A stretch of 64,000 nt of DNA from Clostridiales bacterium (GTDB lineage: Bacteria > Bacillota > Clostridia > Saccharofermentanales > Saccharofermentanaceae): contig JAFWDK010000010.1 in the NCBI GenBank assembly GCA_017513085.1, positions 192,001-256,000 of the forward strand, in the 5' to 3' direction. Both the position numbers and the translations under genes were made by a program. The notes below the pieces were generated by a model, which was given only the letters and a program-made list of their open reading frames with translations, was not told where the DNA came from and made no database searches. Shown one piece after another: positions 6,330-58,761 of the stretch (position 1 is its first letter; each line of letters begins with the position of its first letter).

Positions 6330-8785
6330 GAAAACCGGAATTACTGGCACCTGCAGGTTCAATGAGTATGCTTCGCGCAGCTGTCGATGCCGGAGCGGAT
6401 GCGGTCTATCTTGGGCTGAATCAGTATAATGCGCGTATTCATGCGACGAACTTTACTTTGGAGAATCTTTCCGAAGCCTTGGAGTTTGCCCATCTTCGTA
6501 ATACGAGAGTTTATGTGACATTAAATACGCTGGTCGATGACGATGAGATCATTGATGCGGTGGAACTTGCCATGTCTGCCTATGAGAAAGGTGTTGATGC
6601 TTTTCTGGTGCAGGATATCGGTCTTGCGTCTTACCTTGCTGAGCATCTTCCGCAGATCCCTGTGCATGCCAGTACACAGATGAATGTCTTTTCCATGAAA
6701 CAGCTACAGGAAATGCGCGATTTTAAGATCAGTCGTGTTGTTCTTCCTCGTGAGCTTTCTCTGGATGAGATCCGCTCACGTGCGGCTCTATGGCATAGTG
6801 ACGATGTTGAGGTTGAGGTCTTTGTTCACGGCGCTATGTGCGTATGCTATTCCGGGCTTTGTCTTTTCAGTAGCATGAACAAATCAGGATCCCGATCTGG
6901 TAACCGTGGTGCCTGTGCCCAGCCTTGCCGTCAGAGTTATCAGATCTTCGACGGAAACCGCGAGATCGAAACGTATGGCAAACCGCTGCAATCTGGTAAA
7001 CTTCTTTCGCCTAAGGATCAATCGGCATTGCCATATCTTCGTGAACTTATGGAAGCCGGCGTGGATTCTCTTAAGATCGAAGGACGTATGCGCGATGAGA
7101 ATTACTGTACTGCGGTCGTTTCCGCATACCGTCGCATGATCGATGCGATTGCAGAGGATCGCGATACCCAAGAAGTAATGGATCAGGTAAAGAATGATCT
7201 TCTTGTTACGTTTAATCGCGGAGGCGATTTTACGACGCAGTATTTGCAGGGAAAGAAAGGTCCGGATTATCTGTCCGGAGAATATGCCGGAAAATACGGC
7301 CTTTATTGGGGTGAGGTCCTCTCGGTGAATCCTAAGCTCGGTACGATCAATGTGCGTTCGTGGCAGCAGGATGTACCGGAAAAAGGTGATTTCCTTTCTA
7401 TACGGGAGAAGGAGAATGAAGTGGCCAGCTTCCCGATCGGTAAAATCGAAGTTTCCAGAAACTCAGCTCTGGTCAAAGGTCTTCATCCGGATGCGATAAC
7501 TAAACTTAAGCAGGGAATGTCGGTTTACCGGATGAGTAAGCATATCACGGTTTCAAAAGAACAGGTCAGAAGAACTCCGGTTTCCGGTGTTCTTTCTAAG
7601 CATGATGACAAGATCGTTCTGACTCTGAAAGTCACTGAAGGTTTATTTTCCGGCGTAACAGCGGAACATGCTGTCGATGTTCAGGATCTGGGCGATGGGG
7701 CACCTCTTTCTTGGGAAAGAACCATGGATCAGTTGAATAAGACGGGTCAGACACCTTTCCGGCTTTCAGGGCTTGATATGGAAGGGGATTTTCCTATAAG
7801 CCTTCGTATTTCCAGCGTGAATGAACTCCGGAGATGTGCGATGGGAAAGATGGCAGAAGCAATTCTGGATGCATCTTTGGAAAACAGGAGCAGTGCTTTT
7901 GCTGAAGAAGGTGAGACGGAAGAGAACGGGCGGACGGCTCCTGAGAAAAAGCATATCGTGATCGCGGATTACATCGATATGGACCGTATCACGGATGGAT
8001 ATGCCTGCGGTGCCGATCTTTATGTTTTTTCCGTGCTTTCGGTACTGAAGTCCGGACGGATCGGCTGGATCGATGAATTGCTTTCGGAAGAGCCGGGAGC
8101 AAAGATCGCGCTTCGTTTGCCGGGGGCATATAAAGATGAAATGCTGCCGAGTATTGAAAAAGCGTCTGATCTTCTGATGACGCATGCAGGCAAGCGGTTT
8201 GCCGGGTTCTTCGGTACGTTCGCCGATGAGGAGACGATAGGCCTTCTTGCGGGTACGAACATTTATAATCATTTCTCCTATGAGTATTCGTTAAAGCAGG
8301 ATGTGGAGTATATCCTGCCTTCCTACGAGCTTACTAATGAGCAGATCGTGAGAATGGCGCAATTGACCGGCCCGGATAAGAAGACGGCGTATCTCGGTGT
8401 ACACCGTTACGGTCCGGTGGAATGGATGCAGTCTGAATTCTGTCCGCTCGGCAGGCATCAGAAGAACTGTTCATTGTGCCGTGAGCATCCTGAGGTTTCT
8501 TTGGGTGAGAAGATCACGGAGAAGGGAGCTATGCATAACGACTCCAGAGTGGATGTGGTTTGTTATCCCGGTTTCTGCAGAAGTGATCTTTTCGGAACAT
8601 GCAAAAACATGATCAGCGCGAAGACCGTGCAATCGTTGTTGAATCAGCAGGTTCCGGTTGCGTCGGTAGCCAGATTCATGAATGAGGATCAGATGGAGAG
8701 AAGATCGATCGTTGATTCGCTTTTGGATATTGGCGGAGACGATGAGGAATTCTACGAGGAAGGTGAGGACTGGTATGAATATTGA
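6326..8785 (+). CDS. Peptidase U32 family Fe-S protein (RlhA/TrhP-like RNA hydroxylase, long form)
   Basis: PELLAPAG, GADAVYLG, HASTQM, cysteine motif C.CYSG.C...RGACAQPCR, SLKIEGR. Confidence 0.9.
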   Translation: MRKPELLAPAGSMSMLRAAVDAGADAVYLGLNQYNARIHATNFTLENLSEALEFAHLRNTRVYVTLNTLVDDDEIIDAVELAMSAYEKGVDAFLVQDIGLASYLAEHLPQIPVHASTQMNVFSMKQLQEMRDFKISRVVLPRELSLDEIRSRAALWHSDDVEVEVFVHGAMCVCYSGLCLFSSMNKSGSRSGNRGACAQPCRQSYQIFDGNREIETYGKPLQSGKLLSPKDQSALPYLRELMEAGVDSLKIEGRMRDENYCTAVVSAYRRMIDAIAEDRDTQEVMDQVKNDLLVTFNRGGDFTTQYLQGKKGPDYLSGEYAGKYGLYWGEVLSVNPKLGTINVRSWQQDVPEKGDFLSIREKENEVASFPIGKIEVSRNSALVKGLHPDAITKLKQGMSVYRMSKHITVSKEQVRRTPVSGVLSKHDDKIVLTLKVTEGLFSGVTAEHAVDVQDLGDGAPLSWERTMDQLNKTGQTPFRLSGLDMEGDFPISLRISSVNELRRCAMGKMAEAILDASLENRSSAFAEEGETEENGRTAPEKKHIVIADYIDMDRITDGYACGADLYVFSVLSVLKSGRIGWIDELLSEEPGAKIALRLPGAYKDEMLPSIEKASDLLMTHAGKRFAGFFGTFADEETIGLLAGTNIYNHFSYEYSLKQDVEYILPSYELTNEQIVRMAQLTGPDKKTAYLGVHRYGPVEWMQSEFCPLGRHQKNCSLCREHPEVSLGEKITEKGAMHNDSRVDVVCYPGFCRSDLFGTCKNMISAKTVQSLLNQQVPVASVARFMNEDQMERRSIVDSLLDIGGDDEEFYEEGEDWYEY

Positions 8786-9269
8786 GATCTATATTGAAAA
8801 GATCTGTGAGGATGCGGTGATTCCGGCCTATGCACACGATGGAGATGCCGGTATGGATCTTTATAGTGTGGAAGATGTGATCATTGAACCGGGGCAGACT
8901 GTTCTTGTTAAGACCGGTCTCAAGATGGCCATTCCGAAAGGATACGAAGTCCAGGTACGCCCGAGAAGCGGTATTTCGTTAAATACACCGCTTCGTATTC
9001 CGAACAGCCCTGGAACGATCGACAGCGGATATAGAGGAGAAGTCTGTGTGATCATGGAAAATACTTCTCCTTTGGAAAGCAAAGTCGAGGGACAAGTGCT
9101 TTCGCTGAAGGAAAAGGGTAACCAAAAGGGTACTTATAAGATTTCAAAAGGTGACAGGGTCGCCCAGATGGTCGTGGCCGCATATGCATCTGCCGCGTTT
9201 CAGGAATGTAAGGATGTTTCCTTGATCGGAGAAGACCGTATGGGCGGATTTGGTTCTACAGGCGTGTGA
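8775..9269 (+). CDS. dut: dUTP diphosphatase
   Basis: AGMDL, RPRSG, GTIDSGYRGE, RMGGFGSTG. Start placed at ATG 8775 after a GAGG RBS. Confidence 0.95.
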   Translation: MNIEIYIEKICEDAVIPAYAHDGDAGMDLYSVEDVIIEPGQTVLVKTGLKMAIPKGYEVQVRPRSGISLNTPLRIPNSPGTIDSGYRGEVCVIMENTSPLESKVEGQVLSLKEKGNQKGTYKISKGDRVAQMVVAAYASAAFQECKDVSLIGEDRMGGFGSTGV

Positions 9270-24839: not shown

Positions 24840-26078
24840 TTAAGAATTCGACTCTGTTTCTTTCAGGTCGCCCTTGCTGGCCAGGAGTTTCTTGATCTTG
24901 TCGGTTGGCTTGATCAGATTGGACAGTGACGAGTCATGGTTGATCGCGTCGATGAGAAGCGCTACGAACTTACTCATGTTAACATCCGCAAACCAAGGAG
25001 CGGCAAGCAGTTCCGGTCTTCTGTAGATCAGGTTTGTCGCAAAGACTTTGGAAATGATGCCTTCTTCATAAGCTTTATCAAAATGCTCGACGCCTTCTGT
25101 AAATAAACCGAATGTAACTGCGCAATAGATGTTTCTGGCTCCGCGATGCTTCATCTCGCGTGCGATATCCAGCATGGAATCGCCGGAAGAGATCATGTCA
25201 TCAACGATCAGGATATCAAGACCTTCCACAGATTCACCGAGGAATTCATGAGCGACGATCGGATTACGGCCGTTTACGACACGCGTATAGTCTCTGCGCT
25301 TGTAGAAAGTACCCAGCGGAACACCAAGGATCGATGCAAAGTACATAGCACGTGAGATACCGCCTTCGTCAGGGCTGATAACCATGAAACGGTCTTCGGT
25401 AAAGTGCAGATCAGGAATAGAACGATACATTTCTTTGATGATCTGGTATGTAGCAGACAGGCTCTCAAAACCGGAAGTAGGAATAGCATTGGCTACTCGC
25501 TCGTCGTGGGCATCAAAAGTAATGATGTTTTCGACACCGAGGCCATAGATCTCTTCCAGAGCAAAAGCACAGTCGAGGGATTCACGGGAGTTTCTCTTGT
25601 GCTGACGGCCTTCGTAAAGGAAAGGCATGATAACGTTGATACGACGTGCCTTACCGGAGCATGCGAGAATAACACGCTTGAGATCCTGATAGTGATCGTC
25701 CGGACTCATATGATTGATCTGACCGAACATTTTGTATGTGCAGGAAAAGTTGGTAACGTCACTGATGATGAAGAGGTCATGACCACGCACGGAACTCTGG
25801 ATAACAGCTTTTCCTTCACCGGATGAAAATCTGGTGTTTTCGACAGCTAAACGATAATCCTGACGGTAGAATCCCGGATATTTACTGATAAACTCCTGCT
25901 CCTGGTATTCGGATCTGCGTTTATTCAAGTACCAGTTTACTTTGTCAGTAAACTCGACACTGCCTTTCAGCGGTACCAGTGCGATTGGTCCAACAGGTGC
26001 CATCGGGTTATCCCCGTATTGATTATAACGGGAATAGGCTCTCTCATCAGGACTTTGCATGTTCGGTTCCATAGTCAT
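24840..26078 (-). CDS. prs: Ribose-phosphate pyrophosphokinase
   Basis: RFSSGEGK, VRG.D, MPFLYEGRQHKR, FDAH, SPDEGG, YKRR, IVDDMISSG. Confidence 0.93.
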   Translation of the reverse strand: MTMEPNMQSPDERAYSRYNQYGDNPMAPVGPIALVPLKGSVEFTDKVNWYLNKRRSEYQEQEFISKYPGFYRQDYRLAVENTRFSSGEGKAVIQSSVRGHDLFIISDVTNFSCTYKMFGQINHMSPDDHYQDLKRVILACSGKARRINVIMPFLYEGRQHKRNSRESLDCAFALEEIYGLGVENIITFDAHDERVANAIPTSGFESLSATYQIIKEMYRSIPDLHFTEDRFMVISPDEGGISRAMYFASILGVPLGTFYKRRDYTRVVNGRNPIVAHEFLGESVEGLDILIVDDMISSGDSMLDIAREMKHRGARNIYCAVTFGLFTEGVEHFDKAYEEGIISKVFATNLIYRRPELLAAPWFADVNMSKFVALLIDAINHDSSLSNLIKPTDKIKKLLASKGDLKETESNS

Positions 26079-26093
26079 TTTTCTCCGATCCTT

Positions 26094-27320
26094 TTACAAT
26101 AATTCTTCTAGTCTGACTTGTCCGAGAAGGGAATCAAACCGATCGATCGGATTTGTCAGTTTGCCAATTGATTCGTCAACATTCAGTGCATCGATGATAC
26201 GTGCAACAAATGGAGTCATATTTACATCCACATACCATGGCGCATCCAAAAGCTTTTTCGGACGGTATGTCAGGTTCGAGCAAAGCACCTGCTTGATGAT
26301 GCCCTTCTCGTAAGCTTCATTAAATGGTTCCAGACCCTCCGTAAAAAGTCCGAAAGAAGCAGCGCAATAAATGTTTCCGGCATTCCGTTCACGCATATAT
26401 TGTGCAGTACGGAGCATGGTCTTTCCGGAATTTATCATATCATCGACGATCAGGACATCTTTGCCCTTAGGATCTGCGCCAAGGAATTGGAACGACTTAA
26501 TAAGGTAATTACCATCTTCATCCATGCGGGTATAGTCGCGGTCACGATAGAAGAGCCCAAGATGTAATCCGAGCATGGAAGAATAGAAGATTCCGCGAGA
26601 AACAGCCATCTCGTCAGGACTGATGATCATCATGTTATCCTTGTCGATATGGAGCCCCGGGTTTTTATAGATCAGAGTCTGGATGATCTTATATGCACAC
26701 TTGGGCATTTCAATACCCATGAGAGGCACTGCATTAATGATTCTCGGGTCATGCGGATCGAAAACGATCAGGTTTGCAACACCGAGATTATAAAGATCCT
26801 TCAGCATTTGCGCACAGTCAAGGGACTCGCGTGTTATGCTGTGATCCTGACGGCCTTCGTAAAGAAAAGGCATGATTACATTGATACGCTTGGCTTTCCC
26901 GCTGACTGCCATGATGATTCGGAGAAGATCTCTGAAATGATCATCAGGACTCTTAAAGTGAGGAATGCCGGATAATGTGAAGGATTCATCATGTGAAAGA
27001 ACATCTGTAATGATATAAATATCATGTCCACGGACTGTCTGGTTCAGGGTCACTTTACCTTCACCGGTAGAAAAACGTGTAATAGTAGCAGAAATTGTAA
27101 AATCCCTACGTAAATATCCTGCACTGTTTACGTAAGGACTGGCGTTTTTCTCGTATTTCAGAGCACGTTTTTCGTAGAGAACATCATTGACTTGCTTGAC
27201 AAATTCCTCGTTAGAGGTGTGCGAAATGATTCCTATCGGACCGAAAGGTTCTAGTAAATAACCGCGATAATCTTCGCAAGAAGAGTTAACAGAGCTTGGA
27301 ACACTCGTGTTTTCTGACAT
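26094..27320 (-). CDS. prs: Second, divergent ribose-phosphate pyrophosphokinase paralog
   Basis: RFSTGEGK, MPFLYEGRQD, SPDE, IVDDMINSGKT. ATG 27320 follows GGAGG. Confidence 0.85.
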   Translation of the reverse strand: MSENTSVPSSVNSSCEDYRGYLLEPFGPIGIISHTSNEEFVKQVNDVLYEKRALKYEKNASPYVNSAGYLRRDFTISATITRFSTGEGKVTLNQTVRGHDIYIITDVLSHDESFTLSGIPHFKSPDDHFRDLLRIIMAVSGKAKRINVIMPFLYEGRQDHSITRESLDCAQMLKDLYNLGVANLIVFDPHDPRIINAVPLMGIEMPKCAYKIIQTLIYKNPGLHIDKDNMMIISPDEMAVSRGIFYSSMLGLHLGLFYRDRDYTRMDEDGNYLIKSFQFLGADPKGKDVLIVDDMINSGKTMLRTAQYMRERNAGNIYCAASFGLFTEGLEPFNEAYEKGIIKQVLCSNLTYRPKKLLDAPWYVDVNMTPFVARIIDALNVDESIGKLTNPIDRFDSLLGQVRLEELL

Positions 27321-27518
27321 AGCATCCTCCACAAAACGATATAGTCAAGAAACTACAGTACAAGTATAACGCTTTTTTCTTGATTTTTGTACTGGAAAAA
27401 ACAAACAATTATAAATAAAAAAGCGTGCACTTATGGGTAAAATGCATATAAAAATCATTTGTTGGTTTGCCTTCCGAAAAGGTATGTTACTATATATAGA
27501 TAACAAGGAGGTGCTTAC

Positions 27519-28255: not shown

Positions 28256-30610
28256 GTGAGCGAAGGGGCATCTATATTTACACATCAGGATAGGGAAGAA
28301 ACTTTTTGGATAGACTGGATAAACAGAGTTTTCAGCTCGTTGATCTGCCGACCATTGGTATATGCTCTGATAATGTGTATGCTAGGCTCGTATTGTGGTT
28401 TTTATTTCTCTTCGCCGCTCCGTTTTGGCTTTTTACCGGTTGTTTCTCTGCTGACGCTTGTTTTTGGATGTAAAAACCGGGGTTGCCGGAAATATACATT
28501 AACGCTGGTTGTTGGTTTTGGCATCTTTATACTATCGTTCATATATTTTACTCATGTTTGTCATCAAGCGGAGCATTTGGAAAATGTGGAGAATTATGAA
28601 GGAAAATGTATGGTTTGTTCCAGAAACGGCTATTTATCCGGTTATAAAAACCTGACGGTCCGGCTTCCCGATGGAGAGAAAGTGAACTGGCTTACCGATT
28701 CTTCTTATGGTTTCGGAGACGAGTTGATCGTAAAAGCCCGGATACAGACTATTCAATCTAAGGGAAACCCGGGAGACGTAAATTATAAGAAAACATTCCG
28801 TAATGCAGGAATCTTTCGCGCAATGAAAGTAGAGAAGGTCATGTCTGTTACTCCCGGTGATCTTTCCATTATCGATAAGGGATTTATTCTTGGTGCAAAG
28901 ATTCGGGAAGGCTGTTTTTCTTTGTGGAACAAATATGCTGACAACATGACGGCCATGTTCCTTGCTGCTATGGTCGTGGGCGACACGTCTCATCTGGACG
29001 AGAGCGTGAAAGAACGGTTTAAAGAATGTAATCTATTTCACTTGCTTGTCGTCTCCGGAGCCCATGTCGGGTATTTTACATCTACGATTGCAGCTCTCTT
29101 TTCTTTTTTGTCGAGAAAAAAGATACTCCGTACTATAGTTCTTGGCATAGCATTGCTTTGGTTTGGCTTTGTCATCGGTTGGTCAAGTTCGGCGACAAGA
29201 AGTATTCTGACTTTCTTGTGTGTTTCGGCTCTTTCATTTGAAAAACGGGGAATAGATCGCATATCTGCATGTGCTTTCAGTGGCCTGGTCCTTTGTATGG
29301 GTAATCCGTATTCCGTGTTTTCTCAAGGCTTGCTTCTATCTTTTGGTGCAACATTCAGTATTATGGTTTTTGAAAAAAGAATCACCTTTTTTATAAGAAA
29401 CAGAATTCATAAGATCCCTGAGGAACTGGTGAGGGCATTTTCGTGCTATATCTGCGCAAATATCGGGATGCTTCCGGTTCTGATCTCAATCGGGAATACT
29501 CAATCTGTTCTGAAGCTGCTTGTTGTTCTTTTGGCGGGATTCCCGGCTGAACTGATCTGCTCTCTTGGCCTTCTTTCTACTGTATTGGCTTGGTTTATGC
29601 CCTGGGGTTGTTTTAATACTATTATGTTTTTCCCGATTCGTGGTTTGGTCAGTTTTTTAGATCTTCTGTCTTTTTGGGGACAGAAGAGGAGTTTCTTTCA
29701 ATTCTCCTGGCAAAATCTTTCATGGGTTTCAATGGGATTGTTCGTAAGTCTGCTCCTATATTGTGTTTGCCACTCCGGGATCCGGAAGAGAATGATGATA
29801 CTTGTTTGTTTAGTTACTTCTTTGGTTACTGTTTTCGAAACATTTCTATTTCGTATGAATGATCCGGTAAAAGTGTATTTTCTGGATGTAGGACAGGGGG
29901 ATTGTGCCTTGATATGTTATGGAGATAAGCATGTCCTGATAGATGGAGGCAATGTTGGTAAGGGTGAGACGATACGTTCAGTCATGAACTTCTTGGATAT
30001 CGGGAGTATCGATCTGGCCTTGGCCTCGCATCTGGATGCGGATCACATTGCCGGTCTTCTTGAGATATACAATTTGGGCCTGATTGAACAGATGTACTCT
30101 CCATTTTGGTCTGAAAGCTCTGAAATGAAGCAGCTCGAACAAGCTGTTGAGAACGTTCCCGAACATGTTGATGTTTTGGCAGCTGGAGATGAGATCCTTA
30201 TCGATGAAGATATTATCTTTCATGTGGTTTGGCCGAAAAAAGCAGTTAACGGCGGGAATGAAGATTCGATGGTTGTCTGGGCGGAAATCCGGGGAACTAA
30301 TATCCTTTTTACCGGAGACATAGGTGAGAAAACCGAAAATGAAGTGATAGACAGCCTTCCCGAGGAGATCGATATTTTGAAGATCCCTCATCATGGCAGC
30401 AGATATTCTGTATCGGATGATTTTTATAATAGTAAAAAAATAGGTGCAGCAGTTATTAGCGTAGGGTATAATCTTTATGGACATCCATCCAGGGAAGTAC
30501 TGGAAATGCTTGAGAACAAAAAAGTGCCTTGTTATCGTACTGATGTGGCAGGGTGTGTCGTTTTGGAGATCGACCAAAATGGATGGAATGTAGATTACTA
30601 TTTTTCTTGA
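28256..30610 (+). CDS. comEC: DNA internalization competence protein ComEC/Rec2
   Basis: Multiple TM helices, HLLVVSGAHV competence motif, MBL domain (FLDVGQGD, SH.D.DH, FTGD, PHHGS, YRTD..G). Confidence 0.93.
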   Translation: MSEGASIFTHQDREETFWIDWINRVFSSLICRPLVYALIMCMLGSYCGFYFSSPLRFGFLPVVSLLTLVFGCKNRGCRKYTLTLVVGFGIFILSFIYFTHVCHQAEHLENVENYEGKCMVCSRNGYLSGYKNLTVRLPDGEKVNWLTDSSYGFGDELIVKARIQTIQSKGNPGDVNYKKTFRNAGIFRAMKVEKVMSVTPGDLSIIDKGFILGAKIREGCFSLWNKYADNMTAMFLAAMVVGDTSHLDESVKERFKECNLFHLLVVSGAHVGYFTSTIAALFSFLSRKKILRTIVLGIALLWFGFVIGWSSSATRSILTFLCVSALSFEKRGIDRISACAFSGLVLCMGNPYSVFSQGLLLSFGATFSIMVFEKRITFFIRNRIHKIPEELVRAFSCYICANIGMLPVLISIGNTQSVLKLLVVLLAGFPAELICSLGLLSTVLAWFMPWGCFNTIMFFPIRGLVSFLDLLSFWGQKRSFFQFSWQNLSWVSMGLFVSLLLYCVCHSGIRKRMMILVCLVTSLVTVFETFLFRMNDPVKVYFLDVGQGDCALICYGDKHVLIDGGNVGKGETIRSVMNFLDIGSIDLALASHLDADHIAGLLEIYNLGLIEQMYSPFWSESSEMKQLEQAVENVPEHVDVLAAGDEILIDEDIIFHVVWPKKAVNGGNEDSMVVWAEIRGTNILFTGDIGEKTENEVIDSLPEEIDILKIPHHGSRYSVSDDFYNSKKIGAAVISVGYNLYGHPSREVLEMLENKKVPCYRTDVAGCVVLEIDQNGWNVDYYFS

Positions 30611-40470: not shown

Positions 40471-40476
40471 AAATTG

Positions 40477-40500
40477 CCGGAATTGTTCCGGCTTTTTTTG
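40477..40500 (+). terminator. Intrinsic terminator after the MBL hydrolase
   Basis: GCCGGAA-TTG-TTCCGGC followed by a T-run. Confidence 0.8.
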
Positions 40501-40892: not shown

Positions 40893-42287
40893 ATGAAAAA
40901 GAGATTATTCGGAAGAAAGGGTTCAATCACGATATTTCTATGTATTATCCTTTCTGCAATCATTCTTCTTGAGAGTGTATATATTTCCGGAGCGTATCAA
41001 AGAAAACGCGAGGTCTTGATTACCGAGGCGGTGTCTCACCAGGTGGAACAGGCTTTGTCTCAGTTTGACAGGGATATTCTGGATTGGTACGGTCTATATG
41101 CTATCAAAGAGGTCAAGGAGGGGACGGCTGTTTTCAAAAGTATGACCGCTTCTTTGAAGGATGCATCTTATGCATATGAGATGACACATCCCTTTGATAA
41201 TGATTGTTTGAAAGACTGCATATCTGATTATATGCGTCTTCGAGGGCTTGCCTTTGAAGGGAATGGCATCCTTGACCGTCTGGGTATTTCGATCTCTAAG
41301 ATCAGGGGAAGCAATAACACTGGTGGAGATGGTATTTCCAGCTGGTTACCAACGTTTAAATCAATGTTGGGCAACAAAAAATATGTCAAGACGATTCTCG
41401 ATAAACTGAAAGACACGATCAGAGATGTCGGCCTAGGTGAAAAAATCGACAAATTCAATTCATTTGTCGACAGTGCAAGAATGGTATGGGAGGAGAAAAG
41501 CAGTGCGGTAATTGAATATGGAGATTCTTCCACTACGATTTCTATGTTTGATCCATCCTCGATTTCAGGATTGACGAATCTGTTTGATAAATACATGGAT
41601 GCTGATCTGCCGGGTTTTATTGACAGAATGATCATGAATGAATATGCAACTTTTCAATTTGACTCGAGATTAACAAATATCATAACTGACAACGGAGCGG
41701 TTCCTGAGACGAATATGATAGGAATCCCGTTTGATAAGATGCATTCCGGAAATCATTCTGATCTGGAGTTTCTTCTGGTTGGTTCGGATTCTGAATCGAC
41801 GAATCAATTTGCGGTGAGCAGTCTGCTTCTTGGCATGCGCTTGCTTTTAGATATGGGCTCATTTCTTATGGATGAAGCTAAGAAACAGACGGCATTTGTA
41901 ATTGCAGAAGTCATGACTTTGATCATTGCTTTAGTGTCTTTAGGTACTGTGATCATTGATCCGTTTACCATCCAATATGTGATCCTCTTCATTATGGCCT
42001 ATATTCAGGCGTGGACAGATGTAGTCAAACTTGTTAACGGTATGAGTGTTCCGCTATTTTATAACGATACATTTCCTTCTGTCGGAAGGCTGACTGATAC
42101 CAGTTATCGGGATTATTTCCGCATTGCGCTTTTGTTTGTTCCGGAAGAATGGCTGTTGATAAGAATGCGGTATGTAATACAACGTGATGCCGGTGCGACA
42201 CTTTATACAGGCATCAAAGGCACGGGGAAACTGCAAGATAGCGAGTATCAGGTGGAAAGGAGGTATGAATTGTATGAGAATCATTAG
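40893..42287 (+). CDS. TadG/DUF5702-like minor pilin
   Basis: Basic leader then G|SITIFLCIIL (prepilin-type site); EY....F, LEFLL.G, SYRDY.RI.L motifs. Confidence 0.7.
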   Translation: MKKRLFGRKGSITIFLCIILSAIILLESVYISGAYQRKREVLITEAVSHQVEQALSQFDRDILDWYGLYAIKEVKEGTAVFKSMTASLKDASYAYEMTHPFDNDCLKDCISDYMRLRGLAFEGNGILDRLGISISKIRGSNNTGGDGISSWLPTFKSMLGNKKYVKTILDKLKDTIRDVGLGEKIDKFNSFVDSARMVWEEKSSAVIEYGDSSTTISMFDPSSISGLTNLFDKYMDADLPGFIDRMIMNEYATFQFDSRLTNIITDNGAVPETNMIGIPFDKMHSGNHSDLEFLLVGSDSESTNQFAVSSLLLGMRLLLDMGSFLMDEAKKQTAFVIAEVMTLIIALVSLGTVIIDPFTIQYVILFIMAYIQAWTDVVKLVNGMSVPLFYNDTFPSVGRLTDTSYRDYFRIALLFVPEEWLLIRMRYVIQRDAGATLYTGIKGTGKLQDSEYQVERRYELYENH

Positions 42288-43296
42288 AAAAAGACGGTTG
42301 AGAATCGGTTCGTTTGTATTGGAGGCCAGTATTGCGACACCGATCGTGGTCGTTCTTTTGGCAGCCATGCTATCGTCAATGACTGCGATCAACTCGGAAT
42401 TATACGTCCAAAGAGCAACGGAAAATGTTGTACAGGAGATCAATCTGGCGATTCCGATTGCTTCACAAGGCTTTTCATGTATTGATGATATAGCTAAATT
42501 CTTTGGAGTAGGTGATCTGCTCGATGTTGATACCAAGGATATTGATACATTTTTAGGCGCTTTTGGAGCAGTGAGCGGAGCAACAGACGTTGATTTCGAA
42601 GATATAGTCGGTACTGTTGCGTTTGGCCGATTGGTAAGAGACAGGATCGTGAACGAGTACCGGAAAATATGTAAGAATAATTGGGTCGCTACAGATCTTT
42701 TAAAAACAATGTCTGTATATTTGGACTATGATAAAGAGAAAAAGTGTATCTTTGTCGATGTTTACTATGAGCTATCAGCAGGCAAGATCTCTTTGTTCCG
42801 AAAGTACTGCACAACGGTTTCCATGTATGCAGATCCGATCCAACGTCCGGAACAGGATCCGGGGAATGGCGAGCAGACTGATTCCATATGGGATCAGGAT
42901 AATTTTGGCAGGGGAATTGCGTTAAGAAAGAAATATGGTGGAAATCTACCGCACAACTATCCTGTTATAAGCGCTTTTAAGGATCATGAAGCGACTTCTG
43001 TCAAAAGCATCGATACAACCTCGCCGTACTATCAAAATCTTACAAAACTGACAGGCGTAGTAAAAGGATATATTGATGATCTGGCGGATTTTCAAGGCGC
43101 CAACTGGGGTGATACTTCTATTTCCGGAGATGATATCCACTCGAGAAAACTCATAATCGTCATTCCTGAGAACGGATCGGAAGAGTGTACTGCAGCAATC
43201 GAGCAATTACGCGCATATGCGGAAAGCCGTGGAGTGAAGCTTCAAATCGAATCTTATGGGGAATCCCACAAATATACTCAAGAACCCGAGCAGTAG
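42274..43296 (+). CDS. TadE-like pilin fused to a C-terminal CdiA EC869-like nuclease-fold domain
   Basis: Class III signal RKRRLRIG|SFVLE followed by a TM helix; C-terminal GGNLP.NYPVI..F.....TSVKSIDT...Y...YID.LADF...RKL.IVIP...AES.GVKL.I. Confidence 0.7.
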   Translation: MRIIRKRRLRIGSFVLEASIATPIVVVLLAAMLSSMTAINSELYVQRATENVVQEINLAIPIASQGFSCIDDIAKFFGVGDLLDVDTKDIDTFLGAFGAVSGATDVDFEDIVGTVAFGRLVRDRIVNEYRKICKNNWVATDLLKTMSVYLDYDKEKKCIFVDVYYELSAGKISLFRKYCTTVSMYADPIQRPEQDPGNGEQTDSIWDQDNFGRGIALRKKYGGNLPHNYPVISAFKDHEATSVKSIDTTSPYYQNLTKLTGVVKGYIDDLADFQGANWGDTSISGDDIHSRKLIIVIPENGSEECTAAIEQLRAYAESRGVKLQIESYGESHKYTQEPEQ

Positions 43297-43406
43297 CATT
43301 ATATTATATATAAATATATACAAAAAAAAGTTGTCATTGAGCAAACCTTGCTGTATATTATTAGTGCTGATAATTTGAGTAATTGTGTTTACTTGGAGGA
43401 GAAGAC

Positions 43407-43646
43407 TTGAAACAGGGAAGCGAGCAAGTACGTGAAGTAGGCAGTTCCCGGCAATCCGGCGGATTCAAGGATCGGGAAAGAGATCTTCCGATCGGAGATG
43501 TTTTGCGTAAACATTACCGGGAGCTTATGACCAAGCGTTTGTTGGTTTTAACTGTTGTCATTCTTCTAATCCTTTTGGTGGTCATTTTTACTGTTAATGG
43601 CTTTTTCGGCCGCATGTTTGATACACTGATGGGATTTGTGGATTGA
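43407..43646 (+). CDS. Small membrane protein
   Basis: GGAGG RBS followed by TTG at 43407; single C-terminal TM helix. Confidence 0.6.
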   Translation: MKQGSEQVREVGSSRQSGGFKDRERDLPIGDVLRKHYRELMTKRLLVLTVVILLILLVVIFTVNGFFGRMFDTLMGFVD

Positions 43647-53050: not shown

Positions 53051-54190
53051 TTAAAGTTTTTCGGCAATATATGAAATATCACCGATCAAGTTAGGAATAT
53101 CTTTTCGAAAGATCCTTCCGGAGTAGGCTTCATGCGGAAGAGCGATGAATGCTGCCTTTTCCGTCAGAACATTTCGGTAAATAGGGTCGGAAATGACCGT
53201 TCCGGCGCCGCGAAGAGCATCGTCAATGTCTTCTTCGTAAGGCGTGTAACGATCACAAGAACGTAACTTCGGTCCATCGTTGGTGGGACAAAGCACGGAA
53301 AAATGTCTATTGGTTTCCAGGGCAAGTGCTTTTGCCAAGGAAAGTGAAGAAATCTCTTCTCCGATGATGAAGCAGCCGTCTTCCGTTTCAGGATCATTGA
53401 AATCGATTGCCGCTTCTTTTCCGTCAGCGAGAAGAGATAGAGTTTCCAGTATCTTGCCGGTTAACTGAGAGCCATAAGGAACTGCCTCGAGATACGGGGT
53501 CCCGAAAGTCTCTTTCAGGTACTCCGCCGTGGCGCGGCCTGTCGAAGAAACAACCAGGTTTACACTGGCCGAACCGATATTCTCTATGGATTCCCAGGTC
53601 GTATTCATCGCAAGAGTAGCGTTGACTGTCCAGCCGTTTTTCTCGAAAAGCTCCCGAAGCGACTCGCATTGACCGTTGGTGGAGAAATCAAGCGGAGTAA
53701 GCCCGATTATGTTGAGGACGCGATTCCCGCTTGGGGTTATTTCTTTTATTGAAAAGCGCTCAACGATTGCACGTAGTGCCATGGAAGCTCCGGAAACGTA
53801 GGTTTTCATTCCCGTGGTGGAGAAGCCGAATGCCGGGATCCCGGTTTCGTTTTCAATCTGGAATGCGACACTTTCCGCGTCAAAACCTGTCATGGCCGGA
53901 ATCGGTGTTCCCGCAATCGCTATGAAGCGAGGGTGAAAACGCTTAGCTTCTGTGACGATATCCTCGATCAGTTTGTTATCGTCGCCCATGATGGCTTCGA
54001 GTTCTGAGATAGCCGATACGAAAAGCATGCTGTCCATATCGAACCATCTTGGCTCGTCGTGTGTGGTGTAAGTGGAGTTGCAGCCGGATGCATCATGAAT
54101 GATGACCATTCCGCCGAGTTCAAATAGCATTGATGCGACGCCAAAAGCATCTGCACTATATGTAGATAAAATTCTGCTTGTTTGTTTCAT
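53051..54190 (-). CDS. Nitrogenase component 1-like subunit (beta/BchB-like)
   Basis: IIHDASGC, AIMG...KL, AMTG.D, NIIG.TP.D, NLVVS..G..AEYL...FGTPY. ATGA overlap with the upstream gene. Confidence 0.85.
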   Translation of the reverse strand: MKQTSRILSTYSADAFGVASMLFELGGMVIIHDASGCNSTYTTHDEPRWFDMDSMLFVSAISELEAIMGDDNKLIEDIVTEAKRFHPRFIAIAGTPIPAMTGFDAESVAFQIENETGIPAFGFSTTGMKTYVSGASMALRAIVERFSIKEITPSGNRVLNIIGLTPLDFSTNGQCESLRELFEKNGWTVNATLAMNTTWESIENIGSASVNLVVSSTGRATAEYLKETFGTPYLEAVPYGSQLTGKILETLSLLADGKEAAIDFNDPETEDGCFIIGEEISSLSLAKALALETNRHFSVLCPTNDGPKLRSCDRYTPYEEDIDDALRGAGTVISDPIYRNVLTEKAAFIALPHEAYSGRIFRKDIPNLIGDISYIAEKL

Positions 54191-55518
54191 ATACAGCTTT
54201 CGCACCCCCATGCTTTTTTCTGGATCAATGTACGGATGTCTTTTTCGTTTTCAACAGCATCCAGCATCAGGCGGCAAAGCTCAGTGATTGCCTGATAACC
54301 GTACAGACCGCCATTTTCGACAATGTTGACAAAGTGCGGGGCGGTATTGAAATGAGCAGCTTTTTGACCGATACAAAGATAATCAGAAGCCTTCCGGTCG
54401 GAGGCGAAGCGCATTTGCGCATCAAGAGTCGGCCAGATCTCCAGATCCGGTTCTTGCTGACAGAGGTAATCGAAATCGCTTTTTTCTTCGCCGGTAAAAG
54501 AATCCGCATAGACTCTTTTTACATTGAATCCATGAGAAAGAAGGAGACGAGCCAATCCGAGCGGGCGGCTGAAAGCGGCAAAATCAATAGCTATCGGTGT
54601 CTGACCGATCGTTTCTTTCACTTTGGATAATGACTCTTCGCAAAGGGACTCTTCCTTATCAAAGTCGGGAAGCCGGATCGGAACATGAAAGGCCAGTTCC
54701 CGGACATTCTTTCTGATTTCCTCATAACTGAATGTGAAGGGGAGATACAGGAGCTTTCCGCCGAGACGGGCCTGCAGATCTTCTCCGCCGGCCTTGGCAG
54801 ACGGATAATCGGCGATATAGTATTCCGCCGCCGCCATTTCCTGGTACTCCTCATAGGTTTTGCATTCGGTAAGCTCATATATCCGGATTCCTGCTTCGGA
54901 AAGAGCTTTATAGAGGGTACTGTCTTTGGCTGTTGAGAAATCGTTCCCTATAAAAGCAACTGTACCTTTCTGAATCGGCCTTGGTTTGAGAAGACTGTAA
55001 AAACGGCTTCTCATGATCTGGTCCGGTGTCCGTCCACTCTTTCTCATGATCGGATTCATGTAACAGTCGGTGAAATCGATATCCGGATGTTTTTTCCTCA
55101 GCTCACGGTACACAAGCTCCAGATCACAGCCGCAAAAATGATGTACGCAACTTGTATACACCAGAACACACGGCGGTTTTTGCGGGAGTTGATCGATAAT
55201 ATGTGATACGCCATCGACGATCAATTCCTCCATGTTCCCGTCGACAAGGTTTTGTTCCTCGACGGCAACCGTGGAAAAGCGTTTCTCTGCCCGCATTTCA
55301 TAAGCAGTTAGGACAACTCCTCGAAGGCAGCTTGCGGCACATACGAAGATTTCATGCGCTTCCGGAATCAGCATCCCTTGGTGCGCTATGTTCCATGTAC
55401 CACGGGCAGGGGAGGAGAATTCCAGTCCTGCGTGAAAAGGACTCGGGAAATTACAATCCCTGATCTTGATCGGTTCTATATCTACCTCATGTCCATTTAC
55501 TTTTCTTAACATGATCAT
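54187..55518 (-). CDS. Nitrogenase component 1-like subunit (alpha/BchN-like)
   Basis: FVCAASC.RG, LV.GN.E, YTSC.HHF.G.D..., GLYGY..I..L; adjacent to a nifH-like gene. Confidence 0.85.
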
Positions 55519-56270
55519 TCCTCACAGCACTGTAATAAATCCGACGCCAGTTTTCTGTATTCCGAAGCCATATCGCTATCCGGAAATGCTTCGATCACAG
55601 TCTTTCCAAGGTCTTCTGCTTCGGTTACAAGATTGGAACGGGAAAGAGTACCTACGATCTTAGAATGAATATCGTCACAAAGTTCCTGAACCTTAGCTTC
55701 TTCGTCTTTGACGTTTCTTCTGTTCAAGATCACTCCACCGAGAGAGGCATAGCCGCGTCCCTGAAAATTATCCAGTGCCATAGCGATATTGGCAGCGGCA
55801 TGAATCGCCATGTTTTCTCCGGAAGTGATGACAAAGACTTTGTCCGCATAGCCGCCTCGCATCGGCATGGAGAAACCACCGCAGACTACGTCTCCAAGAA
55901 CGTCATAAAGGACAACATCGGGTTTAAATACCTCGTATGCCCCCTTTTCTTTTAACTTGTCCAGTGCGGCGATGATTCCTCGGCCGGCACAGCCAAGCCC
56001 CGGAGTCGGACCACCTGCTTCGACGCAGATCACGCCCTTATAGCCGGTTTTGACCATTTCCTCCAACGTAAGTTCTTTACCACGCTCACGAACAAGTTCC
56101 AGAACCGTTTTCACTTTCTTTTCGCCATGAAGCGAAAGTGTGGAATCTGCTTTTGGATCACAGCCGATCTGCATGACGCGCAAGCCGCGGTCAGCCAATG
56201 CTGCGGAGATATTTGAAACGGTCGTGGATTTTCCGATTCCGCCTTTGCCGTAAATCGCGATTTTGATCAT
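55515..56270 (-). CDS. NifH/BchL/CfbC-like iron protein (group IV nitrogenase-like reductase)
   Basis: [43 protein letters not shown]; both [4Fe-4S] cysteines present. Confidence 0.95.
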
Positions 56271-57334
56271 TATAATTCCTCCTTTGCGTAGGTAACTTTA
56301 CAACTAACGTTCGGTATCAGTGAAAGCTGGTGCGCAAGCATACGGATCCTCTCGGCACTGCCGTCCAGATTGACACTGATGAGATACAGATCTCTCTTTC
56401 TATGGGGCATCCCCATACGACCGAATAAAATATCATTGAAATCGTGAAGAATAGAATTGATCCGTTCTGATTCCTCATATTTACTGCAAATGATAGACAG
56501 TGTCGCCAGGACGTCACAATCTTCTTTGCCGGTATTTTTCTGATCTTCGTGATCGGTCAGAGCAACAGGAATGACATTGGCGATCATATTGTTATCTGTC
56601 TCAAACTGGCCGATATAAGCTTTTACGCCAAAAGCACTCTCAATATTCTCTTCCGTGATGATCTTCGGGGTCGGTCCGAAGAGTACTTTTCCGTGATCGA
56701 TCAGGATCGATTTGGCGGAGCGTCGCAGAGCGTGTTCCGGATAATGCGTGTTGAACAAGATGCCGATACCTTCTGAACTGAGTTTCGTGAGAGTATCCAG
56801 TACGATCATCTGGTTCTTAAAATCCAGATTGGATTCCGGTTCGTCAAGTACGATGATCCCTGCGTGCGAAACAAGTGAACGCGCGATCCTTGTCATCTGG
56901 AGCTCACCACCACTGATCTCGTTGCATTTTCTGTCTCGAAGATGAAGAATATGAAGCCGGTCCAGAGTCTGTTCGGCAAGCTCGATGTCTTTTGCTTTCG
57001 GCGTAGAGAACATGCCGATCTGGTTAGTCATGCCCAGCAAAACAGATTGCAGGACTGTATAACTGCCACCTCGATGGTTATTCTGCGGGACATAGGCAAG
57101 CTTGGACCAAAGCCTGGATGGTTCAAAATCAGAAATGTTTTCGCCGTCCAGAGTACTCATGCCATGCGTCCACTTTAAAAGTCCCATGGAGGCGCGAAGC
57201 AACGTGGTTTTTCCGGCACCGTTCGGCCCGAGGATGCTGACCATCTCGCCACTTTCGACAGAGAAATTCACGTTCTCATATAAACTTTTTCCTTTCTTAT
57301 AGCCGAAAGACGCGTCCTTTATTTCAAATTTCAT
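56270..57334 (-). CDS. FecE/BtuD-type ABC ATPase with a C-terminal TM1266-like (ACT/NikR-C) domain
   Basis: [28 protein letters not shown]-terminus INSILHDF...LFGRMGMP matches the 58337-58603 protein. Confidence 0.92.
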
Positions 57335-58350
57335 AAAGACCAGCCTCCTTTCTTTCTCATCAGGAAAATAAAGAAGGGAGCGCCGATGATGGCGGTCAGT
57401 ATTGAGATCGGAAGTTCAGCAGCGGTCATGGAACGTGCAAGGGTATCTACAATGATCAGAAAAGTACCACCGAATGAAATGCATGCAGGTATCAGATGCC
57501 GGTGGTCATTGCCGAATACCATGCGGCACATATGCGGAACGATCAGTCCGACCCAGCCGACCTGGCCACACATGGAGATTGACGAAGCCGTAGCAATGGT
57601 CGCGCATAAAATAGCAATCATGCGGAGCCGTGGCATATTCACACCGGAAGAACAAGACTCCTCTTCGGACAACAAAAGAAGATTCAATCTCCATCTCAAA
57701 AGAAAAAGCACTGTCAGGCTTAGTGCAATCGGAATCACACCGATCAGCAGGGACGAATAGGTGGCGCTCTGAAGACTGCCCATAAGCCAGTACGTGATAG
57801 AAGGAAGCTGCTGTTCCTGATCCGCTGTGAATTTTACAAGAGAGACTAAAGCGGAGAACAAAGATCCCATGATAATACCGGAAAGAACGATCGTATTCAT
57901 GGCTTGATCTTTTCCTTTGGCGGCAAGGATCGTCAAAAATACGGCAAGACAACCGAATCCAAAAGATACCAGTTGCATCGGGATAAGGGAGAAGCCAAGA
58001 AGAATCGACAACACGGCACCGAAACTGCTTCCGCCTGCAACACCGAGCGTATCAGGTGTTGCCAAAGGATTCTGAAACAGGCTCTGAAAAAGCAGCCCGG
58101 CGCAGGAAAGCGCGCTTCCGACAACGAAAGCTAATAAAATGCGAGGAAGGCGAACGTTCCAGATCGTGATGTATGAAAGTTTGCTGACCTCAAATCCGTC
58201 GCTGAAACGTGACAGGACAGCACGAAAAACATCCGGGACAGAAACTATATACCGTCCTACGCAAAGCGAGAAAAGCAGAGCAAGTACCGGAAGTGCGATG
58301 AGAAGAAGAATATATCCGATTTTCCAGGAATCGTTTTTAGTTGCCATCAT
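57331..58350 (-). CDS. FecCD/BtuC-family ABC permease
   Basis: VRLPR, Q.LFQNPLA.PD.LGV..G, WLMGS, GWVGL.VPH, ELPI.ILTA.IGAPFF. Confidence 0.95.
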   Translation of the reverse strand: MMATKNDSWKIGYILLLIALPVLALLFSLCVGRYIVSVPDVFRAVLSRFSDGFEVSKLSYITIWNVRLPRILLAFVVGSALSCAGLLFQSLFQNPLATPDTLGVAGGSSFGAVLSILLGFSLIPMQLVSFGFGCLAVFLTILAAKGKDQAMNTIVLSGIIMGSLFSALVSLVKFTADQEQQLPSITYWLMGSLQSATYSSLLIGVIPIALSLTVLFLLRWRLNLLLLSEEESCSSGVNMPRLRMIAILCATIATASSISMCGQVGWVGLIVPHMCRMVFGNDHRHLIPACISFGGTFLIIVDTLARSMTAAELPISILTAIIGAPFFIFLMRKKGGWSL

Positions 58351-58603
58351 GGTTGGTTACCACGTTAGAATAAGCTGTTTTGCTGGCGATGCCATCTAAA
58401 CGGCCGATCCGTCCGGACAGTGTATTGATATCGTCCTGCGGAGCGTCGATAGCGATGCTTATGATGCTGATCCCTTTTTCACGATAAGGAATGCCCATTC
58501 TGCCGATGATGTATTTTCCGTATTCGTGCAGGAGAGAATTCAGTTTCTCTACCGATTCGTTTTTTTCAACGATGATGCTGATCACAGCGACTCTGGTTTC
58601 CAT
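58337..58603 (-). CDS. TM1266 family protein (putative iron-only hydrogenase system regulator, ACT/NikR-C fold)
   Basis: METRVAVISIIVE....VE.LN.LLHEY..YIIGRMGIPY......IIS...DAP...IN.LSG.IG.L.G...K; 88 aa. Confidence 0.88.
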   Translation of the reverse strand: METRVAVISIIVEKNESVEKLNSLLHEYGKYIIGRMGIPYREKGISIISIAIDAPQDDINTLSGRIGRLDGIASKTAYSNVVTNHDGN

Positions 58604-58761
58604 AAAAGCCTTTCCGGACGAAAAAAAACATGTCCTTAAAAGACATGGCAACACAAAAATAGCTTAAGCAAGCATATGGTTGTCAGATCTTTCACTCAGT
58701 AATACTTCATGTCAGGCGACATATCTCTAGATAAAGTATCACGGAAACATCAATCAGTCAA
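58604..58761 (-). promoter_or_regulatory. Promoter plus structured 5' leader with an intrinsic terminator (candidate riboswitch/attenuator)
   Basis: Minus-strand TTGACT (58761-58756), 17-bp spacer, TG-n-TACTTT (58738-58733). Hairpin CAUGUC-UUUUAAG-GACAUG-U8 at 58647-58621, upstream of the first start codon. Confidence 0.7.

Follow-up and report, generated by a model that had tools for sequence, protein, structure and literature searches.

A putative Tad pilus subunit carrying a degenerate EC869-type nuclease domain in a Clostridiales genome

Here, we analyze a 64,000-nucleotide stretch of DNA (the window) from a Clostridiales bacterium of the Saccharofermentanaceae (contig JAFWDK010000010.1, positions 192,001 to 256,000), and within it the open reading frame (ORF) at 42274-43296 (+), whose 340-amino acid (aa) product we call P0001. 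P0001 is probably a minor pilin (pseudopilin) of the TadE/TadF type that belongs to an Flp1-type Tad pilus and displays at its C terminus a nuclease fold with a dead active site. In the predicted structure it consists of three parts, a pilin module (residues 13-186), a linker (187-202) and a domain foreign to pilus biology (203-330, hereafter the C-domain; Table 1). The ATG at 42274 has a GGAGG box at suitable spacing upstream, all close homologues and orthologues share the same M-R-I... beginning, and the end of the preceding DUF5702 ORF (stop 42287) overlaps this start by 14 nucleotides. The N terminus reads MRIIRKRRLRIG/SFVLEASIATPIVVVLL... (here and below, a slash marks the putative processing site), as given in a preliminary description of this DNA that was made from its letters alone.

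A nuclease fold without its active site

The C-domain matches the Pfam family PF21111 (CDI_toxin_EC869_like) over residues 223-325 (E 2.3e-16, 60.6 bits with a cut-off of 27), no other Pfam family was found in P0001 even at E<=10, and PF21111 matches 113 of the 122 members of the P0001 family. A phmmer search of Protein Data Bank (PDB) sequences retrieved 4g6u_A, the C-terminal toxin region (CdiA-CT) of EC869 (E 1.5e-5), and 4zqu_A from Yersinia (E 6.8e-4). An AlphaFold2 (AF2) model of P0001, built on 25 homologues, reached a mean predicted local distance difference test score (pLDDT) of 72.2 and a predicted template modeling score (pTM) of 0.41, with C-domain blocks at pLDDT 78-91, and Foldseek of this model returned the same two structures (4g6u_A, E 5.4e-9, root mean square deviation [rmsd] 1.9 Å over 133 columns; 4zqu_A, E 3.5e-8). 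VIA-align against all representatives likewise gave 4g6u_A at Z 16.4, with 128 residues aligned at rmsd 1.9 Å, and 4zqu_A at Z 14.4; other PD-(D/E)xK nucleases were lower at Z 5-7. Judged on these profile and model comparisons, the resemblance to EC869 is real homology. The E. coli EC869/TA271 (orphan 11) and Y. pseudotuberculosis YPIII CdiA-CT toxins (PF21111; 4G6U, 4ZQU) of systems that inhibit growth on contact (contact-dependent inhibition, CDI) have the same fold at 26-27% identity to the C-domain, and P0001 has in common with this toxin type the motifs W..x..RG, NLP, P.I and S-I-D, as well as the beta-hairpin region. According to passages of PMC9086364, the toxins insert this hairpin into their immunity protein CdiI by beta-augmentation.

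The active site of EC869-type toxins is described in the same source as Glu177, Asp198, Ser209 and Lys211 (PMC9086364). Mapped by HMMER alignment with the 4g6u chain (chain index + 5 = published numbering), Glu177 is replaced in P0001 by R218 (ALRKK) and Asp198 by S233 (PVIS), and Ser209 and Lys211 correspond to S242 and K244. Asp198 is S, G, C or A in 25 of 25 close homologues (alignment A1), and a survey of 180 domain-bearing proteins among the fetched homologues found a degenerate tetrad in 159, including all the pilin-fused ones. An N-terminal G-x4-[E/D]-hydrophobic signal is present in 134 of these 159, the rest mostly having A/S at position -1 or being fragments; in approximately 15 of the 159, an Asp still stands in the Asp198 column while Glu and/or Lys are missing, the residue at the K244 position varies across the family (K/R/H/T/V/S), and copies that lie inside tad operons of other Clostridia are degenerate as well (R-S-S-K, Q-A-S-K, R-A-M-K). 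An intact E-D-S-K tetrad was confined to 21 of the 180, all non-pilin proteins of 130-1416 aa, whose N-terminal parts we take to be RHS/YD-repeat toxin-like; the sole match to the signal expression among these 21 lies inside an RHS-like repeat protein. EC869-type toxins are DNases that depend on Zn2+. Because both acidic metal ligands are replaced across the pilin-fused clade, P0001 would not be a canonical PD-(D/E)xK nuclease or toxin. A 275-aa pilin-fused variant from another family of the class (L045; G093:C2, locus 8023-8850, -) has the tetrad E-D-S-V, in which only Lys is lost, and may represent a stage between the active nuclease and the dead module.

Much of the preliminary description withstood this scrutiny. 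Its ORF and coordinates stand, the nuclease-like domain that it placed at about 42880-43260 corresponds to residues 203-330 (42880-43263), and the likeness to EC869 that it had noted was recovered by Pfam, phmmer, VIA-align and the Foldseek comparison it had proposed. Its observation that the catalytic Glu and Asp are replaced and S-x-K is kept agrees with the 4g6u alignment, and the comparison of catalytic positions across homologues that it had also proposed adds that the loss is clade-wide, not private to P0001.

A domain tree built without the four catalytic columns, its tips labeled intact or degenerate, called for 2 label changes (20.1 on average after shuffling, with none of 500 shuffles as low), and in IQ-TREE (81 rows) a topology grouping the 21 intact sequences was not rejected (approximately unbiased test, p-AU 0.79). 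On these trees the data are compatible with a single origin of the pilin-fused degenerate clade. Across the 122 family members the C-domain is the best conserved region, its mean identity to P0001 being 41%, where the pilin body has 18% and the linker 8%, and is therefore under selection for some function. When 130 nonredundant degenerate sequences were compared with the 21 intact ones, a core was common to both groups (W206, R213, G214, N224-L225-P226, P230, I232, S245, D247, Y253, F273, G275, R291, P298), other positions were constrained in the intact toxins only (E218, D233, R234, T241, S242, Y266, W278, Q305), and a third set was constrained only in the pilin clade (N210, R218, T249, P251, L270, N300). 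Several positions of this third set lie in sequence on either side of the old active site, and our reading is that they may form a remodeled pocket.

The pilin module and its link to the Tad pilus

P0001 begins with a prepilin signal, G12/S-F-V-L-E17, followed by a hydrophobic stretch. Alignment A2 of the 122 members shows G at position -1 in 112 and A in 9, E at position +5 in 121 and D in 1, S at +1 in 92, mostly K/R at -2 and -3, and P at +11 in 97, which bears out the class III prepilin site and transmembrane segment read by the preliminary description, and with the fold evidence above supports its view of a TadE-type pilin fused to an EC869-type nuclease fold. In the AF2 model, helix 14-64 is followed by further helices and a three-stranded sheet (143-183), and the linker falls below pLDDT 50. 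The Pfam TadE family (PF07811) matches 41 of the 122 members at E<=0.01 (best 2e-9), and no N-methylation-type family of Pfam or NCBIfam matched P0001. The signal is of the TadE type. TadE and TadF (Aggregatibacter; PF07811) are like P0001 in their G/xxxxE signal and hydrophobic alpha1, and resemble the P0001 orthologues of other Clostridia in their position after flp in tad operons, and the P0001 family matches PF07811 in part; canonical TadE/F proteins, by contrast, have approximately 150-200 aa without an extra domain, whereas a 128-aa nuclease fold is grafted onto P0001, whose gene in this order lies apart from tadA-C. TadE and TadF are cleaved by TadV. The genome of P0001 has a Peptidase_A24 gene (C4:94916-95281), and the TadV-like short peptidases of other clostridial tad loci gave weak tblastn matches on contigs C4 (E 0.001) and C16 (E 0.004). 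Members of the family are publicly labeled 'hypothetical protein [Clostridiales bacterium]', Atlas clusters are automatically named 'CdiA toxin EC869-like domain-containing protein' or 'Pilus assembly protein', and NCBIfam has no family for P0001, for the neighboring DUF5702 protein or for either small ORF of the locus.

P0001 is distributed as a core gene passed on vertically would be, and not as a polymorphic toxin cassette. Homologues occur in 58 of 60 relatives and 24 of 24 genera, with essentially one gene per genome, and in all 48 genomes that are >=90% complete with <=5% contamination; the two relatives without one are 88-89% complete, and the genome of P0001 itself has a single PF21111 match. 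The gene for the Tad ATPase, tadA, is as widespread (58 of 60 genomes of the order). P0001's own genome has four T2SSE-type ATPase matches, one of which lies in a tad-type locus on contig C14, and it also has a PilB/PilT-type system. The C14 locus (Table 1) encodes an Flp1_like pilin (PF16982, E 9.4e-13) and a 409-aa membrane protein with a BLASTP match to the gene in the same position of other tad loci, which we take from its C-terminal sequence to be the forkhead-associated (FHA) gene, and no pseudopilin genes were found in it. This locus is likely the machinery for the pseudopilins encoded in the window. The P0001 gene is never beside tadA here, so the Tad link in this genome rests on homology and co-occurrence.

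Evidence for that link comes from other families of the class. Among eight loci compared (L039-L046), four (L039, L040, L044, L046) have an uninterrupted run of tadZ-like, tadA, tadB, tadC, flp1, TadE-like (200-228 aa), DUF5702-like (735-994 aa) and P0001-like genes, with genes for small membrane proteins and the FHA gene after the P0001-like gene; L041 has the same run without tadA, and L042, L043 and L045 have pseudopilin genes only. Across a sample of 250 genomes of the class, which includes related and hence nonindependent genomes, the P0001 family profile matched 85, with the C-domain covered in 48, and tadA was present at E<=1e-60 in 88 of the 249 genomes scored. Of the 48 genomes with a C-domain match, 47 were tadA positive (the exception is G219), and in at least 10 genomes tadA and a P0001 homologue lie <=10 kb apart on one contig. 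Membership of a Tad/Flp-type pilus, as the preliminary description had it, is thus supported by orthologues inside full tad operons and by co-occurrence with tadA. Among 301 genomes sampled across the phylum, no pilin-fused copy was found outside the class (E<=1e-15). The sole match besides P0001's own genome was G546, of another class, which has two C-domain-only matches 3.5 kb apart (G546:C16:623-1045 and 4191-4619; ORFs of 351 and 467 aa), probably tandem toxin cassettes.

P0001 is encoded last in a trio of adjacent genes, after a small leaderless pilin-like protein and a DUF5702 protein that is a candidate TadG-like large pseudopilin. In 20 syntenic loci from four families of the same order, a DUF5702-like ORF adjoins the P0001 orthologue in all 20 by BLASTP (18 of 20 by tblastn), P0001 and secA homologues are present in all 20, and the order DUF5702 - P0001 - ... 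- secA is kept. By position and N-terminal hydrophobicity, an orthologue of the small gene was found in 16 of the 20 (consensus M-x-x-T-L-E-x-A-L-V). The small proteins (L019-L038) have 82-116 aa and start M-A-x-T-L-E-A-A-L-V... without a leader or glycine site, so that a prepilin peptidase would be unneeded for them; in P0001's own genus, their +5 Glu is Gln (MNTVQTAIVF). The DUF5702 protein has an N-terminal helix (2-56) in its AF2 model (pLDDT 74.9, pTM 0.65), which had no Foldseek fold match in the PDB. From the gene orders, we conclude that an ancestral clostridial tad operon had the trio as its pseudopilin portion, which would have moved beside secA in this order.

The three proteins were folded together with custom alignments and with leaders removed where a glycine site exists, in three runs and three controls. 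The interaction prediction score from aligned errors (ipSAE) had a median of 0.73 (0.73, 0.73, 0.75) versus 0.39 in the best control; of 157 solved complexes, 116 attained the mark used for this score, as did 2 of 215 mismatched pairs, a calibration on single-chain pairs that is approximate for trimers. The runs share at least 84% of contacts, and partner pLDDT is at least 64. Confident contacts of P0001 involve residues 14-67 (alpha1), 73-90, 131-136, 155-160 and 179-188; on the partner sides, they involve the small protein at its helix (5-52) and residues 61-82, and the DUF5702 protein at residues 13-60 and 75-86. No confident contact was named for P0001 residues 203-330, where unnamed residues are merely uncertain, and docking of the beta-hairpin on the DUF5702 protein, which we had considered, was not supported. 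The fold supports a predicted helix-bundle heterotrimer of the trio that leaves the dead nuclease domain free.

Similar assemblies have been proposed elsewhere. According to passages of Herrou et al. 2025 (PMC12075869), KilL/KilM/KilN of the Tad-like Kil system of Myxococcus and TadE/F/G form 'Tips', in which a bundle of alpha1N helices exposes an extra domain. Like our trio, the Kil subunits are encoded by three adjacent minor-pilin genes, one of them large, and are predicted to form an alpha1N-bundle heterotrimer with an exposed C-terminal domain, the heterotrimer being a prediction in both systems (PMC12075869). In the Kil/TadG tips, however, the exposed domain is described as sitting on the large subunit KilN/TadG, being variable and having no known fold (PMC12075869), whereas the module of P0001 sits on a TadE/F-like subunit, is highly conserved and has a recognizable dead toxin fold, and the host is monoderm. 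In Streptococcus sanguinis, PilB (vWA) and PilC (lectin) share with P0001 a layout of pilin module, short linker and grafted module and are expected at the tip, but they are type IVa pilins with an N-methylation motif (IPR012902), unlike the TadE-type P0001 (PMC8179133). The passages of Raynaud et al. 2021 that we drew on contain no TadE or nuclease term (PMC8179133; Dataset S1 not covered), and a literature search that left supplements and subscription journals outside found no publication on the pilin plus EC869-nuclease architecture, DUF5702 or PF21111. By analogy, P0001 may work like a modular minor pilin in the sense of Raynaud et al. 2021 and a Tad tip subunit in that of Herrou et al. 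2025.

Proposed role and competing explanations

We propose that a prepilin peptidase would cut P0001 after G12 and that its alpha1 would then bundle with the alpha1 helices of the 90-aa protein and the DUF5702/TadG-like protein, as in the controlled three-chain fold, giving a heterotrimeric priming or tip complex of the kind proposed for TadE/F/G and KilL/M/N. The C-domain, predicted to hang from this complex on its flexible linker, descends, as sequence and fold show, from the EC869-type CDI DNase fold, its metal-binding Glu and Asp having been lost clade-wide, and may now act as a displayed, strongly conserved binding module in which the former active site has been remodeled around the pilin-clade-conserved N210, R218, T249, P251 and N300. 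For its ligand, our guess is a molecule of the envelope or matrix, conserved and either polar or anionic. On this proposal, the ancestral tad operon is split in this genome, with the tadZ-like gene, tadA, the tadBC fusion, flp1 and the FHA gene on C14 and the trio upstream of yerC-secA.

Several observations weigh against this proposal. The Pfam TadE model scores only 11 bits on P0001 itself (E 1.9; cut-off 22.9), VIA-align found no clear solved relative of the pilin module (best Z 6.3 or lower; neither this nor the missing PDB match of the DUF5702 model is a sign of a new fold), and the confidence of the AF2 model is middling overall, with residues 66-112 below pLDDT 50. The interface of the three-chain fold consists largely of hydrophobic helices, which pack readily, and its score still reached 0.39 when the DUF5702 protein was replaced, a value that presumably arises through the small protein in the model; the ipSAE calibration, as noted, was made on pairs. 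The tadA gene never adjoins the P0001 gene in its own genome or order, and a distance of 400-900 kb separates the two in G036, G037 and G039, which are complete genomes. One genome with a homologue (G051, 95% complete) has neither a T2SSE ATPase nor an Flp1 match, and another (G219) has no tadA at E<=1e-60. The strong conservation of the C-domain is unlike the variable tip domains of Myxococcus (PMC12075869). Four sequencing runs share part of the stretch (shares 0.12-0.51); two are ambiguously labeled and none is listed as RNA.

That same conservation, very high and uniform, would fit an internal partner better than an environmental ligand, and raises the possibility that the C-domain has no external ligand and instead caps or plugs the priming complex or acts as a checkpoint in its assembly, perhaps docked on the machinery or the cell wall, making contact through the retained beta-hairpin. 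We consider such a structural role unlikely. The hairpin region is kept (strands 275-278 and 281-284, with F273 and G275 conserved) and is the part that binds CdiI in the toxins (PMC9086364), and in passages on Micrococcus luteus, TadE/F were undetected in pili and proposed to sit at the pilus base (PMC4322843); against it, the three-chain fold named no confident contact for the C-domain, with the caveat given above, and a long, nonconserved, flexible linker suits a displayed module better than a fixed cap.

The preliminary description had favored a further role, in which the dead nuclease keeps its binding of DNA at the Tad tip and passes DNA to ComEA/ComEC for natural transformation. We find this not supported and hold it to be rather improbable. 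The ancestors of the fold are DNases (PMC9086364), R218 and K244 sit in the former metal site, and the genome encodes ComEC (28256-30610), a ComEA-like protein and DprA. Transformation of M. luteus, whose tad loci are split and include a tadBC fusion as well as TadE/F-like genes that are essential, is reported to need Tad/Flp pili (PMC4322843), and it is because Tad-dependent transformation is documented there that we do not rate a DNA receptor lower still. On the other hand, the C-domain is acidic (isoelectric point [pI] 4.99, net charge -6), with a median pI of 5.35 in the degenerate group versus 9.74 in the 21 intact toxins; residues conserved only in the DNases (R234, T241, Y266, W278, Q305) are also relaxed; and a dedicated ComEA-like receptor is already encoded. 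Acidity, lost toxin-only residues and the ComEA-like gene together speak against a general DNA-binding role of the C-domain. K244 is, moreover, variable in the family, and the PilB/PilT-type system of the genome could serve DNA uptake. The presence of comEC and radC in the window, which the preliminary description had cited, holds true, but both belong to housekeeping synteny 8-14 kb off (comEC adjoins holA) and lie outside the P0001 operon, with a terminator-like site and several housekeeping genes between. ComP, a DNA-binding pilin of Neisseria, uses an electropositive surface, in contrast to the net negative C-domain of P0001. ComP (PMC4906244) and ComZ of Thermus (PMC8179133), as described in these sources, would be functional analogues only if the DNA-receptor reading were right, and neither has a sequence or fold relation to P0001.

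An active pilus-borne toxin or nuclease, cutting by a noncanonical route and delivered to neighbors or degrading extracellular DNA, is very improbable (the preliminary description had called it the less likely of its two readings): R213, S245 and D247 are near-invariant in toxins and pilin-fused proteins alike, which leaves a noncanonical activity formally possible and counts against our proposal, the L045 variant keeps Glu, Asp and Ser, and Tad pili are part of contact-dependent killing in Myxococcus (PMC12075869, in part), but the metal ligand Asp198 is replaced in every close homologue, the clade shows free variation at the four tetrad positions, the gene, unlike polymorphic toxins, is a vertically inherited core gene in single copy with one PF21111 match in the genome, and an immunity-like gene follows it in 0 of 20 syntenic loci. 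Set beside EC869-type CdiA-CT, P0001 has Arg and Ser for the catalytic Glu177 and Asp198, a pilin module in place of the CdiA, RHS or other delivery region, an acidic instead of a basic domain, and a core gene without an immunity gene instead of a variable cassette; on sequence, it departs from this toxin type in tetrad, delivery context and immunity gene. A displayed, noncatalytic module on a Tad minor pilin accordingly remains the reading we prefer.

Genomic surroundings and significance

Table 1. Coordinates of P0001, its parts and associated features (positions in the window unless a contig is named)
Feature	Position	Strand	Basis
Terminator-like hairpin GCCGGAATTGTTCCGGC + TTTTTTT, after the upstream metallo-beta-lactamase (MBL)-hydrolase gene	40476..40492	+	pattern match only
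90-aa leaderless pilin-like protein, first trio gene; M-N-T-V-Q-T-A-I-V-F, then hydrophobic helix	40610..40882	+	no Pfam family
DUF5702 protein, 464 aa, TadG-like large pseudopilin candidate; N terminus GRKG/SITIFLCIILSAIILL	40893..42287	+	PF18960, E 3e-16
P0001, putative TadE/F-type minor pilin of modular build, bearing a dead EC869-like nuclease domain at the C terminus	42274..43296	+	Pfam, phmmer, AF2, Foldseek, VIA-align
Putative leader peptide, residues 1-12, MRIIRKRRLRIG, ending in prepilin-peptidase glycine	42274..42309	+	G at -1 in 112/122; cleavage inferred
Pilin module, residues 13-186: alpha1 helix (+5 is E) and a 3-stranded sheet after it	42310..42831	+	AF2; TadE Pfam in 41/122
Pro/Gln/Asp-rich flexible linker, residues 187-202	42832..42879	+	pLDDT <50
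EC869-type PD-(D/E)xK nuclease fold, degenerate active site, residues 203-330	42880..43263	+	PF21111, 4g6u_A, 4zqu_A
Active-site codons R218; S233; S242; K244	42925-42927; 42970-42972; 42997-42999; 43003-43005	+	alignment to 4g6u_A
Promoter-like TTGTCA-17-TATATT, downstream of the P0001 stop	43331..43359	+	consensus match only
79-aa ORF, charged N terminus, C-terminal hydrophobic helix, between P0001 and yerC	43407-43646	+	no Pfam/NCBIfam match
tad-type locus: tadZ-position gene, tadA (161605-162813), tadB/tadC fusion (530 aa), Flp1_like pilin (60 aa), 409-aa protein	contig C14, 160586-165782		

In the window, the trio is preceded by radC, DUF5688, mreC, a membrane gene in the mreD position, PBP2, an mgsA-like gene and the MBL hydrolase, and followed by the 79-aa ORF, a Trp-repressor/YerC-like gene, secA, PNP and ahcY. 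The hairpin upstream is likely the 5' boundary of a three-gene pseudopilin operon, as far as a sequence pattern can tell, and the promoter-like site after P0001 suggests that the small ORF, yerC and secA may form a separate transcription unit, such sites being no commoner in the region than in shuffles (12 versus a mean of 13.5). We rejected the 79-aa ORF as an immunity protein: it has a hydrophobic stretch and was detected in only 7 of the 20 loci, all belonging to the same family as the window, and a connection with the pilus trio is improbable. No other ORF precedes yerC and secA, and no immunity-like gene was seen after P0001 (no CdiI profile search was made), in line with the preliminary description, which had found no small immunity gene there. 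In some relatives, a 4-kb gap between the MBL gene and the DUF5702 gene might have hidden tad genes, an idea we dropped on finding that it holds pheS/pheT. These two genes lie between the MBL-hydrolase gene and the trio in L022, L023, L024, L026, L027 and others; here, the trio directly follows the MBL gene.

Two other clusters in the window are on record as side observations. At 53051-58654 (-), a NifH-like gene and two nitrogenase-component-1-like genes stand with genes for a periplasmic binding protein, a FecCD permease and an ABC ATPase that carries a fused TM1266-like domain, as well as one for a stand-alone TM1266-like protein; the cluster by its gene content is a nitrogenase-like reductase with its own transporter. 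At 24840-27332 (-), two tandem 412-aa paralogues each have a phosphoribosyl pyrophosphate (PRPP)-synthetase N-terminal, a phosphoribosyltransferase and a Pribosyl_synth domain.

Though tad operons are reported in passages of PMC3244431 as most widespread in Clostridia, the Tad pili of Gram-positive anaerobes are almost unstudied. Our analysis defines a conserved pseudopilin trio, made up of a leaderless mini-pilin, a DUF5702 protein and a TadE-like protein with a dead nuclease domain, through which DUF5702 gains a context. The automatic name 'CdiA toxin EC869-like domain-containing protein' would in these cases mislabel a pilus subunit as a toxin. At lower odds than any of the above except an active toxin, a dead CDI DNase at the Tad tip that still recognizes nucleic acid might be the missing DNA receptor for Tad-dependent transformation in many gut and rumen Clostridia; were it true, a toxin would have been turned into an organ of gene uptake across a large part of them. 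The reading that we prefer, a displayed noncatalytic module, implies that a polymorphic-toxin nuclease fold was exapted as a pilus part and kept under strong purifying selection, with a single origin compatible with the data. The module is present in 47 of the 88 tadA-positive clostridial genomes sampled, and its soluble portion, residues 203-340, may offer a handle for finding what such pili bind in gut and rumen communities.

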